64,000 bases of DNA. It comes from Eledone cirrhosa. Its lineage: Eukaryota. A program made the translations under genes and the position numbers. Positions 1 to 53,649 of this stretch are shown in pieces (within the stretch, counting starts at the first letter, position 1; each line of letters starts with the position of its first letter). The stretch lies in contig OZ024743.1 in assembly GCA_964016885.1 (NCBI GenBank), forward strand, positions 28,086,001 through 28,150,000. Direction: 5' to 3'. Under the pieces are notes generated by a model, which made no database searches, had not been told where the DNA came from, and worked only from the letters and a program-made list of their open reading frames with translations.

Positions 1-800
<800 letters not shown>

Positions 801-1430: not shown

Positions 1431-1555
1431 CAATATATAAGCCGTTTTATAAATAATTTTGACATACCCTAGAATAATGCAACTTCCATTTAAAAAGTTG
1501 ATTTGGTAGTGAAACTGTTGAGGACAGTTATAGAGAAAGAAAGACGACACCTGGC

Positions 1556-3079
1556 TTGACCTTGTGGAAGGGAACTGGGAAGGTCATTGAGTGGTTTAAT
1601 GAAATTAAATATAACAATAATAATAAATTTATTCAACTAGATATTGCTAACTACTATTCATCCATTACCCCTAATCTACTAAATAAGGCACTAAATTACG
1701 CATTCAAACATACAGACCTAACTACCAATGAAATGCACATTATATTATCGGCTAGGAAAACATGGATAGAATTTAATAACCAACTATGGACTAGGGCAGA
1801 TAGAGATAATAATTTCGACATTACTATGGGATCATCAGACTCAGCTCAGGTAACGGACCTTATGGGCCTATTTATAATTAATTCGCTGCATAGGAAAATA
1901 CCCGGTGTTACCGGAGGTTTATATAGAGATGACATGCTTTTACTTATTGAAAATAATAACTCTGAACTAAATAGAAAAAGAAAACAAATTATACAATTTT
2001 TTAATTACCTTAATCTAAAAATAGAAATTGAGAATAACCATAGAATAGTCAATTTCCTAGACGTAACATTAAATCTCAACCCATGTCTTCACTATCCATT
2101 TCACAAGTTAAATGAAAACTTGAATTATGTCAATTTTAGCTCCAATCACCCCAGATCTGTCAAAAATACTATAGTGAACTCTGTTCAAAAACGTATCTCT
2201 AGAATCTCTTCCAATAAAAATATTTTTGACGAAAAAGCCCAGTATTACAATGAAGCGTTAGCTAGAGCAGGATATAGTGATAAAATTATGTACATCGATA
2301 ATAGACAAACTAACCAAAATAACAACAATTTTAATTACGGCAACAACTTTAACAACTATAATAGAAAGCACTACAATAATTCCAAAAACGAGAAAAGAAA
2401 TAGAACTAGAAATATAATATGGTTTGCCCCCCCCCCCCTTTCTCACTAAACATTAAAACCCACATCGCTAAACTATTTTTTAATGCTCTTGACAAACGCT
2501 TCCCTAGAACACATAAGTATCACTCAATTTTCAATAGACATACTATAAAATTAACATACTCGTCCACCAAAAATTTAGCACAAAATATTAATAGAATAAA
2601 TAATAGGAATCTAAAACCTAGCCAAAATACCGAAAATAGCCTAAACAACTGTAACTGTAGAGATAGATCTAAATGTCCGCTAAATAACAATTCCTTAGTT
2701 AAAAATATAATATACAACTGTAATGTTAAAACTGACTTAAATTCTTTTAATTATGTTGGTTCCACCTCGACAGAATTTAAACTTCGCTATAATAATCACA
2801 AAAATTCTTTCACGATTTCCAAATAAAAAATCTTCAACATCACTATCAGGCTTACTCTGGCAACTTAAACATGATAAAGTTGGATATTCGATGGTTTGGA
2901 ATATAGTATCAAAAGGCATTCCTTTTAATTCCTCTTCTGAGACATGTGACCTCTGCGCGGAGGAGATATTCTTTATACTGAAATCTAAAAATTCCCTTAA
3001 TTTACGAACCAATTTATTCAGCTGCTGCAGACATAGATTGAACTCAACTTTTAAATATAAATATAAATTTAAAATGTAG
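1556..3079 (+). pseudogene. PLE reverse transcriptase + GIY-YIG endonuclease, frameshifted (~2430, ~2815) and 5'-truncated
   Basis: DIANYYSSI, FDITMGSSDS, GLYRDD, NFLDVTLN, SNHP; linker CNCRDRSKC (CxCx5C); IIY..YVG..RYNNH; CDLC..E; CCRH. Confidence 0.9.
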
Positions 3080-16438: not shown

Positions 16439-16493
16439 ATATATATATATATATATGATTCGTTTCTTATTGGCAACACGACCCTCCCAAAGC

Positions 16494-16550
<57 letters not shown>

Positions 16551-27359: not shown

Positions 27360-30563
<3,204 letters not shown>

Positions 30564-33357: not shown

Positions 33358-35197
33358 TTGAAAATATCTTATAGAAACGAGCCTCTAACCCCTTATAACC
33401 CTACATTTAATCTAAAGGATCACAAAAATAATTTCGAAATAGACCCCGCAATTAGATTAATATGCCCATCGAAGTCGGATATAGGTAGAATTAGCAAGTA
33501 TATACTAGATAGAGTAATCGCACAAATCAAGGACAAACTAGTAATTAAGCTATGGGTTAACACTAACGAAGCAATAGACTGGTTCAGCAAAATAGACACT
33601 AGAGAAACATCCAACTTCGTACAGTTCAACATTAATGACTACTACTCATCCATATTCCCAGTCACCCTAGATAAAGCGCTTACCTTTGCCCAGAAAAATT
33701 CGGACCTTACCTCGGAGGAAATTAAAATAATACTAGCTGCTAGGAGAACTATCAGTAGATACGAAAATAGTTACTGGGAACGAAAAAACAGACAGAATAG
33801 CTTCGATATCACAATGGGATCTAACGACTCAGCACAGGTAACGAAGTTGGTGGGAATATATATAGCGCACAACTTACATAAGGAATTCAATAACCTCCAG
33901 GGAGGAATTTATAGAGACGACACACTCCTTTTAGCCAAAAACCTAAATAATCAAAACATGGAAAATTACGAAAAAACACCAGAGTCTTCTTCAACAAACT
34001 AAGCCTAGGTATTACTTTCGAACTTAAAAGTAAAAAAGCAAACTTCTTAGATGTAACGCTCAAACTAAACACAGGATTAATAGAGCCCTTCCATAAAAAT
34101 AACGAGAATCTAGCCTACATTAGTTATAACTCAAACCACCCCGATCCATAATTAACTGCATAGCACATAGTATATCCATCAGAATATCCCGCCTATCTTC
34201 TAACCTAGAGACTTTTAACGAACACGCAAACTATTATAACATAGCTTTACATAAGGCAGGACATAAAGAGGGCCTGGAATACATACCAGATAGAGAGAGC
34301 AGCAACAAACCTAACGACAACTACACTACCCACACCTATAGAAATAACAAACATAGGACTATGCATAGAATTAGACGACGAGCACCAAAAATGACTGATC
34401 CGAACACTAATATAAGGACCCCTAAGAACTATAGAAGATCCAGAGATAGAAAATACCTATGGTTCAATCCAATATTCAAATCCTCTTTAAAATCCAAACT
34501 ACCTTCTACATTCTTTAAGCTAATCGACAAACACCTCCCTAAACTACACAAATACCATAGAACTTTTAATAGAAGAACTATCAACCTATCTTCTGCAGCC
34601 AACGTAGAACCACACATAGATAAAATCAACCACAAACATATCTCTAAAGAAAATAACCTATCAATATACACCATAGCACCAAATACAAAACGCAAACACA
34701 TAACAACATCGCAACCACAAACATATCAGGGCGCATCACAACAAAACACTAATAGGGCTAAATCTCAATTCACCCACAACATACAAAACCGCAACGGAGA
34801 ACCTGCACACAGAAAAGCCTTCCACTGTAACTGCCACCTACCGGATAAGTGCCCACTGCAAAATAGATGCCTGGTTTCGAGTATGGAGTACCTGTGTACT
34901 GTAAATTCAGGCAACTCTACTTGGCACTACATAGGTCCCATGGCTGGGGAGTTAAAAAAAAGGTGGTACGTCCACAGACACTCCATGAAGAACCGTAGAC
35001 TGGAGAACTCTACGATGCTCGCCAATAAAATTTGGCAGATTAAAAACACAAACCAGGAATATAGGATTATCTGGTCAAAATTATCAGAAGCAAAGGCCTA
35101 CAACAATGGCATGTCCCACTGCGGACTTTGTAATATGGAGCTATTCAATATTTTAAGGTACGATAAGATGCTGCTTGACAGCAAAATAGAAAGATAA
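33358..35197 (+). pseudogene. PLE RT + GIY-YIG, frameshifted (~33978, ~34142)
   Basis: IRLICPSKSDIGRISK, YYSSI, FDITMGSNDS, GIYRDD, NFLDVT, LWFNP, CNCHLPDKCPL, EY..YIG..KRWYVH, CGLCNME. Confidence 0.9.
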
Positions 35198-36311: not shown

Positions 36312-36850
<539 letters not shown>

Positions 36851-36853
<3 letters not shown>

Positions 36854-37076
36854 TGTTATACTTTGGGAGGGTCATGTTGTCAATAAGAAACACACGCACC
36901 ACTTGCTTCACTTCAATTTATTATATATTTATAAATTTATAAATATATAATAAATTGAAGTGAAAGCAACTGGTGCGTGTGTTTCTTATTGGCAACATGA
37001 CCCTCCCAAAGTATAACAATATCGGTTTCAACACATGATTTCAGATAAAGAATCTTGCTAAACAAATTCAGAAACG

Positions 37077-37080
<4 letters not shown>
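36851..37080. mobile_element. Family C fold-back insert (palindrome 36851-37022 + 3' tail)
   Basis: ttgttatactttgggagggtcatg...catgaccctcccaaagtataacaa, then tcggtttc...cgaaat|(TA)n. Confidence 0.85.
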
Positions 37081-37123
<43 letters not shown>

Positions 37124-44598: not shown

Positions 44599-44633
<35 letters not shown>

Positions 44634-44699
44634 GAAGAGAGAAGAAACATTTAGATATAATTAGTAATAAAATGTATCATACCTAAACTGCTCCTAGAT

Positions 44700-44789
44700 T
44701 CCTCGACTACGTAGTTTCGTGGCATAAACAAAAACAATACATCATAAAGATATAGAGTCCTTGCGAGGTCTGCCGACTTATCAAGAGGA
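44700..44789 (-). ncRNA. Hammerhead ribozyme with U3-A8 core variant
   Basis: Minus strand: tcctc-TTGATAA-gtcggca...tgccac-GAA-ACTACGTAGT-C-gagga. Confidence 0.75.
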
Positions 44790-45294
44790 TGCCTCATTTT
44801 ACTAGCCTCAAGAACGCGTCTACACGACGTGAGAAAGAATCCCAAAAGGCGGAGGGGGAGATAGTCACGCGATATAACGGTCGAGAAACAGAGCTAAGCC
44901 TCTTATAATCCCGAAGAAAATACCACGGAGGCGGAGGGGGTATTTATATCGAAGCCGCAGAAGAGGTGGTGAAGGAGGTGGGAGAAGTATGAGTAATGGC
45001 AGCTTTCCAGCAGTCACCACACTTCAAAGATTACTCAACCAGAGGGAGTTATTAACAATATATTAAGAAACACACAGATACATGCGGACACACACATATA
45101 CATGAATGCATCCACACCCAACCGTGAGTTAAGGGTGCCAACCTCACCGATGTTGCTCAATGAATGACTGGGACAGACCAATCCGGTTGAACCAGACTGA
45201 ACCAGTATCAGAGTTAAAAATACATTATGAAGAGAGAAGAAACATTTAGATATAATTAGTAATAAAATGTATCATACCTAAACTGCTCCTAGAT

Positions 45295-45384
45295 TCCTCG
45301 ACTACGTAGTTTCGTGGCATAAACAAAAACAATACATCATAAAGATATAGAGTCCTTGCGAGGTCTGCCGACTTATCAAGAGGA
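45295..45384 (-). ncRNA. Hammerhead ribozyme with U3-A8 core variant (second monomer)
   Basis: Same motif 595 nt away. Confidence 0.75.
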
Positions 45385-45808
45385 TACCTCATTTTACTAG
45401 CCTCAAGAACGCGTCTACACGACGTGAGAAAGAATCCCAAAAGGCGGAGGGGGAGATAGTCACGCGATATAACGGTCGAGAAACAGAGCTAAGCCTCTTA
45501 TAACCCCGAAGAAAATACCACGGAGGCGGAGGGGGTATTTATATCGAAGCCGCAGAAGAGGTGGTGAAGGTGGCGAGAAGTATGAGTAATGGCAGCTTTC
45601 CAGCAGTCACCACACTTCAAAGATTACTCAACCAGAGGGAGTTATTAACAATATATTTAGAAACACACAGATACATGCGGACACACACATATACATGAAT
45701 GCATCCACACCCAACCGTGAGTTAAGGGTGCCAACCTCACCGATGTTGCTCAATGAATGACTGGGACAGACCAATCCGGTTGAACCAGACTGAACCAGTA
45801 TCAGAGTT

Positions 45809-45842
<34 letters not shown>

Positions 45843-45849
<7 letters not shown>

Positions 45850-46414
45850 ATACTTTGGGAGGGTCATGTTGCCAATAAGAAACACACGCACCAGTTGCTT
45901 TCACTTCAATTTAATTTATTATATATTTATAAATTTACAAATTTATAAATTTCTGGTTGGTTGGTTGGTTCCACAACCAGATAGTTGTTTATATATATAT
46001 AGTCATAGTTCTTTCGTCACACACTCTGTGACCTCTTCAGTGACTGGGGATTTCTTTCTTCGTTTCTGTGCCTTTCCTTTCTTCTATCCTACGCCATTTT
46101 GTTTGGCGTAGGATAGAAGAAAGAAAAGGCACAGAAACGAAGAAAGAAATCCCCAGTCACTGAAGAGGTCACAGAGTGTGTGACGAAAGAACTATGACTA
46201 TATATATATAAACAACTATCTGGTTGTGGAACCAACCAACCAACCAGAAATTTATAAATTTGTAAATTTATAAATATATAATAAATTAAATTGAAGTGAA
46301 AGCAACTGGTGCGTGTGTTTCTTATTGGCAACATGACCCTCCCAAAGTATAACAATATCGGTTTCAACACACGATTTCAGATAAAGAATCTTGCTAAACA
46401 AATTCAGAAACGAA

Positions 46415-46415
<1 letters not shown>
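45843..46415. mobile_element. Family C fold-back insert: ~255-bp-arm near-perfect palindrome + tail; HHR motifs at 46001-46045(-) and 46155-46199(+)
   Basis: Centre near 46100 (cctacgcca-ttttgtt-tggcgtagg); agtca-CTGAAGA-gtcaca/tgtgac-GAAA-gaact-A-tgact. Confidence 0.9.
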
Positions 46416-46445
<30 letters not shown>

Positions 46446-46929: not shown

Positions 46930-46992
<63 letters not shown>

Positions 46993-46996
<4 letters not shown>

Positions 46997-47418
46997 ATGA
47001 TATTAAATAAATGGAAACTATAATTATAAAACTATATTTATTCTATTATATATATTTCAAGGGTACCAAAACTTTGGTCGCACTCGTCAGATAAAACACA
47101 AAGTTTGTTTTATAAATATTGACATACCCAGGAAGTTCTTAACGGTTCAAGTTTTTCCTGGAAAAATTTGAACCCTTAAGATCTTCTTCCTGGATATGTC
47201 AATATTTATAAAACAAACTTTGTATTTTATCTGATGAGTTCGTACCAAAGTTTTCGTACCCTTCAAATATATATAATAGAATAAATATGGTTTTATAAAT
47301 ATAGTTTCCATTTATTTAATATCATTGATATTATACTCCAGAAAAACTGTCGAGTGCTTCGAATCAGTTATAAACATATATATTTGCTGAATTACTAACA
47401 AATTAAATATTCCTTCTG

Positions 47419-50142: not shown

Positions 50143-50741
50143 AATTGTTTCTACTATTGGCACAAGGCCAGAAATTACCCAGTACATTACTGGTACTTTA
50201 TTTTATCGACCCCGTAAGGATGAAAGGCAAAGTTAACCTCGGCGCGATTTTAACTCAGAATGGCAAGGGCCGTAACTCTATGCGTCAAAGCATGGCGTCC
50301 GACCCTCTACCGATACTGCCAATCCACCGAATTAATGTTACTGTAACATTATTATTGGCAGTATCAGGGCGCTGGATTGAGCAGTATCGGTAGAGGGTCG
50401 GACGTCATGCTTTGACGCATAGAGTTACGGCCCTTTCCATTCTGAGTTCAAATCCTGCCGAGGTCAACTTTACCTTTCATCCTTACGGGGTCGATAAAAT
50501 AAAGTACCAGTAATGTACTGGGTAATTGCTGGCCTTGTGACAAAAGTAGAAACAATTATTATTGGCAGTATCGGTAGAGAGTCGGACGCCATGCTTTCCA
50601 GCATAGTTACATCCCCTTACGGACTGAGTTCAAATCCCGCCGAGATTAACTTTGCCTTTCATCCTTTTGCGGTCGATAAAATAAAGTACCAGTAATGTAC
50701 TGGGTAATTGCTGGCCTTGTGCCAAAGTAGAAACAATTATT
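50143..50741. mobile_element. Cluster of three SINE copies: minus 50143-50330, plus ~50355-50560, plus 50562-50741
   Basis: Each carries the B-box region and conserved core; the first two are head-to-head. Confidence 0.9.
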
Positions 50742-50848
50742 ATAAACTATATAATATTAGATATACTGCTTGAGACATTTTCGTCTTTATATATTATATA
50801 TATGTGTGTGTGTGAGTGTGAAGTGGATGTATATGACTTAATGTGTCA

Positions 50849-52866: not shown

Positions 52867-52922
<56 letters not shown>

Positions 52923-52929
<7 letters not shown>

Positions 52930-53609
52930 ATGCTTTGGGAGGGTCATGTTGCCAATAAGAAACACACGCACCAGTTGCTTTCACTCCAATTTATTATAAG
53001 TTAAATTTATAAATTTAAGAATTTATAAATTTATAAATTTCCGGTTCGTTGGTTGGTTCCACAACCGGACGGTTGTTCATATATTGTCAAACTTCTTTCG
53101 TCACACATTCTGTGACCTCTTCAGTGACTGGGGATTCTTTTCTTTGTTTTTGTGCCTCTCCTTTGTTCTGTCCTACGCCATATTGTTTTTGTGTGTGTTG
53201 TGTGCTTAGTTTGCGCATGTGTTACATCCGGGTGTCTGTGTGTGTTTATGTTTGTTTATGTATTTGTTTATTTACATGTTGGTTGATTGTTCTAGGTGTG
53301 TGTGTGTTTTCATTTTGTCCTTAATTGTAAGTTGTGATGTTGCTATTCCATTCATGTTTTCTATTTAATTTTGGTTGGAAAGAACTTTGACAATATAGGA
53401 ACAACCGTCCGGTTGTGGAACCAACCAACGAACCGGAAATTTATAAATTTATAAATTCTTAAATTTATAAATTTAACTTATAATAAATTGGAATGAAAGC
53501 AACTGGTGCGTGTGTTTCTTATTGGCAACATGACCCTCCCAAAGCATAACAATATCGGTTTCAACACACGTTTTCAAATAAAGAATCTTGCTAAACAAAT
53601 TCAGAAACG

Positions 53610-53613
<4 letters not shown>
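52923..53613. mobile_element. Family C fold-back insert with long inverted arm; HHR motif at 53086-53128(-)
   Basis: 52923-53078 is inverted relative to ~53399-53555; tail to 53613. Confidence 0.88.

Positions 53614-53649
<36 letters not shown>

Follow-up and report, generated by a model that had tools for sequence, protein, structure and literature searches.

Insertions of family G, a repeat family met as a dimer in a 64,000-nucleotide stretch of Eledone cirrhosa DNA (contig OZ024743.1, 28086001-28150000; the window hereafter), carry the 'tail' footprint of Penelope-like elements (PLEs): two internal 3' ends, an extension at one end, an inverted 5'-truncated copy and a microsatellite target. 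It is a likely pointer to the type of enzyme by which such repeats are spread. Judged by its sequence, with tandem hammerhead units, no coding body or LTR, dispersed multicopy loci and signs of retrotransposition, the family can be classed as a non-LTR retrozyme. With little more than even confidence, we regard it as a non-coding tandem family with a fixed U3-A8 hammerhead, whose RNA would cut itself, form circles and be copied into TA repeats by a Penelope-like reverse transcriptase (RT).

The window dimer consists of two head-to-tail units on the minus strand (periods 593 and 595, identity ~98.6%), set apart by three substitutions and one small indel region (Table 1). A scan of both strands of the whole window found no canonical type I hammerheads other than the dimer's two. 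The scan agreed with a sequence-only reading of this DNA, which had described the head-to-tail dimer with two minus-strand hammerheads and a U3-A8 core, and which had placed the predicted cuts correctly at 45300 and 44705, 595 nt apart. Its proposal of a retrozyme-type tandem unit holds family-wide, in tandem arrays with one hammerhead per unit. Positions in the unit are numbered q1-q595 from the predicted cut, along window positions 45299-44705 of the minus strand.

Table 1. Features of the dimer insertion and its immediate surroundings (positions in the window).
Feature	Position	Strand	Remarks
Whole insertion (locus L001)	44625..45812	-	One-armed, 1.99 units; runs from just past one site A to the site A that lies two units further on
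Hammerhead 1, type I	45295..45390	-	Stem I 45384-45380 with 45299-45295; U3 45379; A8 45374; stem II extended by a hairpin; palindromic stem III; C17, with the predicted cut behind it, at 45300
Hammerhead 2	44700..44795	-	3' copy of the dimer; U3 44784; A8 44779; C17, with the predicted cut behind it, at 44705; T-to-C change at 44791 private to this copy
Predicted excised monomer, 595 nt	44705..45299	-	Cut to cut; putative release and circularisation
Predicted 5-bp pseudoknot	45360..45390	-	45390-45386 with 45364-45360 in the stem II internal loop
End site A, internal copy, read through	45220..45226	-	q74-80
End site A as 3' end of the dimer insertion	44625..44631	-	Merges into (TA)n
End site B, read through	45057..45064	-	q236-243; second copy 45650-45657
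Predicted hairpin immediately 5' of site A	45229..45299	-	Occupies the 3' strand of stem I
Predicted hairpin immediately 5' of site B	45067..45127	-	Folding and subfamily comparison
TATA-like 8-mer and two identical GC-box-like 11-mers	45443..45543	-	Repeated at 44848-44948
(TA)n flank, 3' end	44601..44630		Repeat scan
(TA)n flank, 5' end	45812..45845		Repeat scan
Neighbour: inverted pair of PLE N 3' ends	45842..46418		Minimal C3-G8 hammerhead in both arms; arm ends at N sites 257 (left) and 317 (right)

Both units read TCCTC-TTGATAA-stem II-GAA-ACTACGTAGT-C-GAGGA on the minus strand and show the core boxes, the three stems (I, II and III) and the open stem I of type I hammerheads. The ribozyme fold has a predicted energy of -25.7 kcal/mol, against a minimum of -26.8 kcal/mol, and stem II runs on past an internal loop into a hairpin extension of ~37 nt. 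An Rfam scan returned no hammerhead match at E<=1, for which this stem II insertion is the likely cause; an Rfam match is a match to a library and not a defining feature of the hammerhead class. The 10-bp stem III is predicted solely as a duplex of two ribozymes (-12.9 kcal/mol), in line with the earlier suggestion that the 10-nt palindrome could pair them; within a monomer, 3 bp with a 4-nt loop would be possible, and no folding of the stem on its own is predicted. Complementarity between five nucleotides 5' of stem I and the stem II internal loop is present in both subfamilies described below (93.8% of cells paired, with no covariation or compensatory change), and a distal extension of stem I that would compete with it is broken in the old one. 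The conserved complementarity likely represents a pseudoknot. According to the main text of PMC3088659, such a contact occurs in all three hammerhead types. Five loci (L150, L152, L155, L156 and L159) represent a young subfamily of their own with a C-to-U change at the bulged base of stem II, compatible with the predicted structure. At L195-L196 (G000:C4:341451222-341454842), tandem units ~565 bp apart have lost most of the stem II hairpin, so that at least one round of copying may be possible without this extension.

Family G was searched for in 3.0 Gb of genome. The core 20-mer had 6094 exact matches against none for a reversed control, and the hammerhead motif is therefore not a chance occurrence; a pattern spanning the cut had 7634 matches. 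DNA search with the unit gave 2441 candidates, and the full-length matches among the 40 scored were 97-98% identical, in arrays with a period near 593 (most family units measure 591-593 nt). These close matches and the low divergence between adjacent units (0.41%, against 2.68% between loci) bear out the view that the window copy is young. Sixty-six loci were examined: 55 covering the first 100 core matches on C1 and 11 matching the 3' half alone. One of the latter gave the first encounter with an old subfamily, which has 114 matches and is ~75% identical to the young one, the majority letters differing at 137 of 593 positions. In contigs from runs X5 and X6 (organisms B and C) the unit is found at low depth, with the usual family letters and no core change listed, as would be expected alike from shared ancestry and from carry-over.

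The Watson-Crick pair between positions 3 and 8 is present as U-A in 6067 of the 6094 exact core matches. Position 3 is changed in 14 (six C, four G and four A, all with A8) and position 8 in 13, with no double changes. Copies with C3-G8, or with an unpaired C3-A8, are thus far from being the majority: none of the 6094 is C3-G8, and a genome pattern search for a C3-G8 relative with identical stem III gave no match. The earlier idea of a compensatory change from a C3-G8 ancestor consequently finds no such copy in the family to start from. Eight short-loop matches, considered as possible relatives, were all truncated or deleted family copies. Among the 11 loci picked by the 3' half alone, all 16 complete ribozymes are U3-A8 and three are truncated. 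The old subfamily yielded 29 distinct ribozyme segments, 26 of them with the 5' half, and of these 25 are U3-A8 and one is U3-C8.

The sequence-only reading had also argued for selection from the agreement of the two dimer copies. Agreement between the copies of one dimer is uninformative about selection, as the two are not independent; it is the comparison of subfamilies that speaks for it. Old and young majority letters agree at all 29 ribozyme positions (core and proximal stems, limited to those not used in picking old copies), whereas 133 of the 543 other positions differ (Fisher p=3.7e-4). The ribozyme, unchanged between the two, is maintained and thus under purifying selection. The stability of the stem II extension is likewise retained despite ten substitutions between old and young (P=0.0025 against random placement); nine of its 14 pairs vary on one side only, mostly through G-U/A-U swaps, and covariation in the ribozyme structures did not exceed a shuffle control. 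A preference for U3-A8 over C3-G8 gains no support from the old-young comparison, and fixation of U3-A8 in the young family can be a founder effect.

The ends of the insertions are far from random. At 55 loci we mapped 87 arms; 83 of them have their 3' end at site A (q76-84; 43 arms) or site B (q238-249; 40 arms), four end elsewhere, and 79 of the 87 run into (TA)4. At these loci the 3' ends are fixed, while the 5' ends are scattered. Half of the 66 loci (33) are two-armed, with inverted arms whose 3' ends all point outward. Where both ends fall at A or B, 29 of 30 loci pair one A with one B and a single locus has A twice (p=3e-8), three further loci being unclassed. One-armed loci end 16 times at A, 16 times at B and once elsewhere. 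Both sites are also used in the old subfamily. The A+A locus (L057) resembles an old and a young insertion side by side, and at L062 a two-armed insertion is present in two copies separated by 2.55 kb, as a local segmental or assembly duplicate.

Sites A and B lie ~163-167 nt apart and both offer short TA-like microhomology. The ends do not simply follow the best TA match, as q197-212 matches (TA)n better than either site and is hardly used, and a shared 7-mer was rejected as the sole end signal on finding that site B of the old subfamily differs. Hairpins are predicted just 5' of both sites in both subfamilies, with P values of 0.015 and 0.0025 for B and ~0.05 for A; the same test on middle and control segments gave P values of 0.06-0.94, one control reaching 0.06, and the modelled hairpin A is accordingly borderline.

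Arms go round the unit up to ~5 times. The sister arm was the best or tied-best match in 14 of 20 cases, and in eight of the ten with an overlap of more than 400 nt. Since sister arms and adjacent units are nearer to each other than to other loci, each insertion likely derives from one template lineage. In 66 young and 21 old-subfamily loci, no arm runs into a coding body; the 5' ends abut (TA)n, unique DNA or the inverted arm, and no ORF of 250 aa or more was found within a family G element.

Next to the dimer lies a 255-bp inverted repeat, formed by the 3' end of a PLE that we named N. N has 2549 pattern matches in the genome and occurs in 4423-bp tandems, with an intact ORF of 1318 aa (L135:653-4609) in which RT, zinc-finger-like and GIY-YIG motifs were recognized by eye. 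So were features of the Neptune/Nematis type (a CX2-5CxxC linker before the C-terminal GIY-YIG, DKG-type, YxDD), which are motifs by eye only. Pfam was blank on this ORF at E<=0.01, and a PDB search with the protein gave only a weak match to a GIY-YIG chain (E=0.27). Near-identical 4423-bp tandems at L134-L136 (G000:C1 ~63.06-63.08 Mb), whose ORF holds a long Asn/His/Thr-rich stretch, were likely active recently, to judge from sequence. N also ends in (TA)n, at a pair of sites separated by 60 nt, and in all 23 distinct two-armed insertions the arms use one site each (read by eye with duplicates merged, many regions having been selected for opposite-strand matches, not for their ends), and its arms run straight into the N ORF. 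The A+B rule of family G was hence rejected as proof of a circle, given that N obeys a rule of the same type.

N is a candidate source of enzyme for family G. The two share no DNA similarity beyond chance-level words and, with no significant sequence in common, N is a candidate partner only. Physical linkage was dropped as support: N ends lie within 150 bp of three of the 66 family G loci and further away at nine. The window holds four or five N insertions (45842-46418, 52922-53615, 36850-37082 and 16462-16503), mostly inverted 3'-end pairs with one short and one long end, and minimal C3-G8 hammerheads of N lie near 46045 (-), 46155 (+) and 53129 (-).

In the scenario of self-cut circles copied by a PLE-type enzyme, the array would first be transcribed, possibly from the block at 45443-45543. 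Its TATA-like 8-mer and GC-box-like 11-mers, which we take to resemble a TATA box and GC boxes, are a possible internal promoter, and the GC-rich 11-mers are unchanged in the old subfamily. Cleavage after GUC would take place during transcription, aided by the predicted pseudoknot and by predicted pairing of the two stem III palindromes, both conserved. Ligation would then give a circle of ~590 nt, whose ribozyme is predicted to be blocked by the hairpin that precedes site A. A PLE protein would nick both strands of (TA)n; copying would start from one nick at A and from the other at B, in both cases directly 3' of a conserved hairpin, as the two kinds of observed ends suggest. Copying would continue across the ribozyme junction, covering as many as ~5 units, and the resulting pair of copies would be joined head to head, or one of them lost, giving the two-armed and one-armed loci described above. 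We put forward more tentatively a narrower version, doubtful as a whole, in which each insertion would record a single retrozyme circle, copied simultaneously from the two nicked strands of the TA repeat, with one primer per hairpin-marked site and with N supplying the protein. Two published results count against the scenario of self-cut circles: hammerhead mutants were without effect on insertion of an anole PLE in vitro, according to the main text of PMC11167929, and eight of nine Xenopus retrozyme dimers showed no cleavage in vitro in the preprint text of bioRxiv 2026.07.22.740005.

The form of the template bears directly on this scenario. Junctions across the cut are free of indels in 120 of 120 cases (112 exact, eight with point changes). 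In a hand count of the first 100 of 191 rows, 31 of which represent point changes, indels or ends just upstream, 5' ends numbered nine at q1, against 13, 2, 7, 6, 7, 3, 8 and 14 at q2-q9; an apparent enrichment at the cut (30 of 61 rows without C17) was rejected, as it disappeared against neighbouring positions. Clean junctions without a pile-up of ends argue against a cut linear monomer as the usual template, and they fit a circle and an uncut multimer alike.

The strongest alternative, which we judge possible though not probable, keeps the PLE-type enzyme and the two start sites and takes an uncut linear multimer as the template, with no circle; the ribozyme would only trim read-through transcripts or act at another stage. 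Besides the junctions and the ends not enriched at the cut, which it equally predicts, it would account for arrays with variant blocks. Variants occur in blocks or in alternation at L004, L006 and L029, so that a single monomer circle would need template switches or later exchange there. According to the main text of PMC11167929, unprocessed RNA was the dominant substrate of the anole PLE in vitro. N itself occurs in 4423-bp tandems with a minimal hammerhead only. A multimer, on the other hand, would have several A and B sites on offer, yet 29 of 30 two-armed insertions are A+B, a weak point given that N behaves likewise. At L088, ten unit segments over both arms share one haplotype save for private single changes; this locus and L159 are compatible with one circle. 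The whole ribozyme, moreover, is conserved across ~25% divergence. One variant alternates unit by unit at L003-L005 (G000:C1:303817646-303820241), which suggests a dimer template or a later duplication of a dimer.

The circular unit folds stably in prediction (z=-3.7, 25 shuffles); there hairpin A takes the 3' strand of stem I, the pairing probability of stem I is 0 and the ribozyme would be blocked. On balance we would prefer the circle as template, at modest odds, because published retrozymes accumulate as circles in the account of PMC7229834 and because the full ribozyme is conserved.

It is improbable that the unit is instead the terminal repeat (pLTR) of a rare, unsampled autonomous PLE, with the arrays as its truncated products. 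The PLE-type footprint would be expected of such an element, ~110 loci of several thousand were examined, and the text of bioRxiv 2026.07.22.740005 reports that 24 of 57 Xenopus retrozyme families matched annotated transposable elements, nearly all PLEs, at their termini. Against this, arms go round the unit up to ~5 times, and not one of the young or old-subfamily loci mapped has an arm entering a coding body, unlike N. Very unlikely is a satellite spread as DNA (by unequal exchange or rolling DNA circles), or a LINE with twin priming, in which the hammerhead would be a relic of the founder. Tandem arrays of up to ~6 units and the local duplicate at L062 agree with such an origin, and inversions of this kind resemble LINE twin priming; the loci, nevertheless, are dispersed and short, with two fixed 3' ends, scattered 5' ends and no poly(A) tail, and neither the purifying selection on the ribozyme and RNA hairpins nor the exact match to the N footprint would be expected. 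Assembly artefacts can be dismissed with near confidence: false duplication or fold-back reads can create long near-perfect inverted repeats, yet the dimer units differ at several places, sister arms carry private changes and end at different sites, and contigs from public runs carry the unit with both ends into (TA)n.

As far as their main texts go, descriptions of metazoan non-LTR retrozymes (coral, mussel and axolotl, PMC7229834 and PMC7761336; vertebrates, bioRxiv 2026.07.22.740005) resemble family G in many respects: the units are non-coding, stand in tandem and each carry a single type I hammerhead; they form dimers to multimers, in copy numbers of thousands; GC is low; and the unit length of family G lies in the reported range. 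Family G differs from them in its family-wide U3-A8 core, in a long hairpin in place of loop 2 and in the predicted pseudoknot. The predicted block of its ribozyme in the circle is as in plant retrozymes and unlike most animal ones, and its two fixed 3' ends, inverted arms and (TA)n targeting are absent from those main-text descriptions. No such two-site inverted-arm footprint was found described for any retrozyme in the main texts of a limited open-access literature, whose supplements may show insertion ends.

These traits are those of PLEs. Reverse transcription of PLEs has two internal start sites from which both strands are extended, and the tail is the stretch between them, as laid out in the main text of PMC11167929; an inverted truncated copy accompanies a tail that is usually on one end only, in the preprint text of bioRxiv 2021.04.23.441226. 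With endonuclease-bearing (EN+) PLEs as presented there, with Poseidon PAc (PMC11167929) and with N, family G shares two internal start sites, one-end extension, an inverted 5'-truncated copy, tandem units, a TA-rich target and a type I hammerhead upstream of the start sites. In contrast to autonomous PLEs, it has no ORF for an RT with GIY-YIG endonuclease, in or joined to the unit, whereas its neighbour N has one. Its start sites are ~163-167 nt apart, against 30-40 nt in the published PLEs of those texts and 60 nt in N; its hammerhead is full, with stem III, whereas that of PLEs is minimal; and it has TA-like microhomology at both sites, whereas PAc, as reported in PMC11167929, started at sites not homologous to the target.

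Within the same limits of partly available sources, published precedent exists for the palindromic stem III, for a U3-A8 core and for a unit of 595 nt (PMC7229834, bioRxiv 2026.07.22.740005, PMC4209133 and PMC3088659). A length of 595 nt, once thought unusual for this dimer, lies within reported ranges of 51-972 bp (bioRxiv 2026.07.22.740005) and 150 to >1000 nt (PMC7229834). Nor is U3-A8 new in animals: ~1,300 matches are reported from Schistosoma in the text of PMC4209133, and PMC3088659 lists it as a natural covariation. Those variants, which include motifs of the Schistosoma Cercyon PLEs, show the same core covariation and are cited in these texts as active in vitro. The Schistosoma motifs are described as heterogeneous, minimal and mostly single, whereas the variant of family G is fixed in a homogeneous tandem family and in an older subfamily. 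Nothing relevant on C3U/G8A rescue, or on a test of the 3-8 pair, was found in the literature searched.

Taken alone, the U3-A8 core and the 595-nt length are of modest interest, and the insertion footprint is the more valuable result. The two-site inverted-arm footprint common to the dimer family and the neighbouring PLE had not figured in the sequence-only reading. Animal retrozyme repeats hold no motif pointing to a partner, in the main text of a 2020 review (PMC7761336), and the 2026 preprint (bioRxiv 2026.07.22.740005) argued for PLEs from co-occurrence and homology, leaving the mechanism open in its main text. Here the PLE signature lies in the insertion ends, at scale, in two subfamilies and beside an intact PLE with the same rule, which makes trans-mobilisation directly testable. 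Should one circle with dual priming and N protein prove right, it would identify both the enzyme and the mechanism behind the spread of animal retrozymes, account for the one-sided tail and the inverted arms of PLEs by dual priming on one RNA and offer a ready protein-RNA pair. Family G also provides a U3-A8 ribozyme that occurs naturally, has long been conserved and has a pseudoknot and an off-switch, both predicted.

Other repeats accompany the dimer in the window. A minimal hammerhead of a different family, with a C3-G8 core and a 6-bp stem II, lies at 369-420 (+). Open frames of 315 and 355 codons, at 1502-2446 (+) and 34130-35194 (+), look by eye like fragments of another PLE family and had no Pfam match; further PLE-like ORFs are present in the window and at the loci. 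The inverted repeat at 46991-47331 (88-nt arms, 95% complementary) adjoins (TA)n and is possibly another two-armed insertion. Finally, a 182-bp unit that looks SINE-like by eye forms a tandem dimer at 50376-50743 (87% matches), and a 3-kb (AT)n tract occupies 27507-30561.
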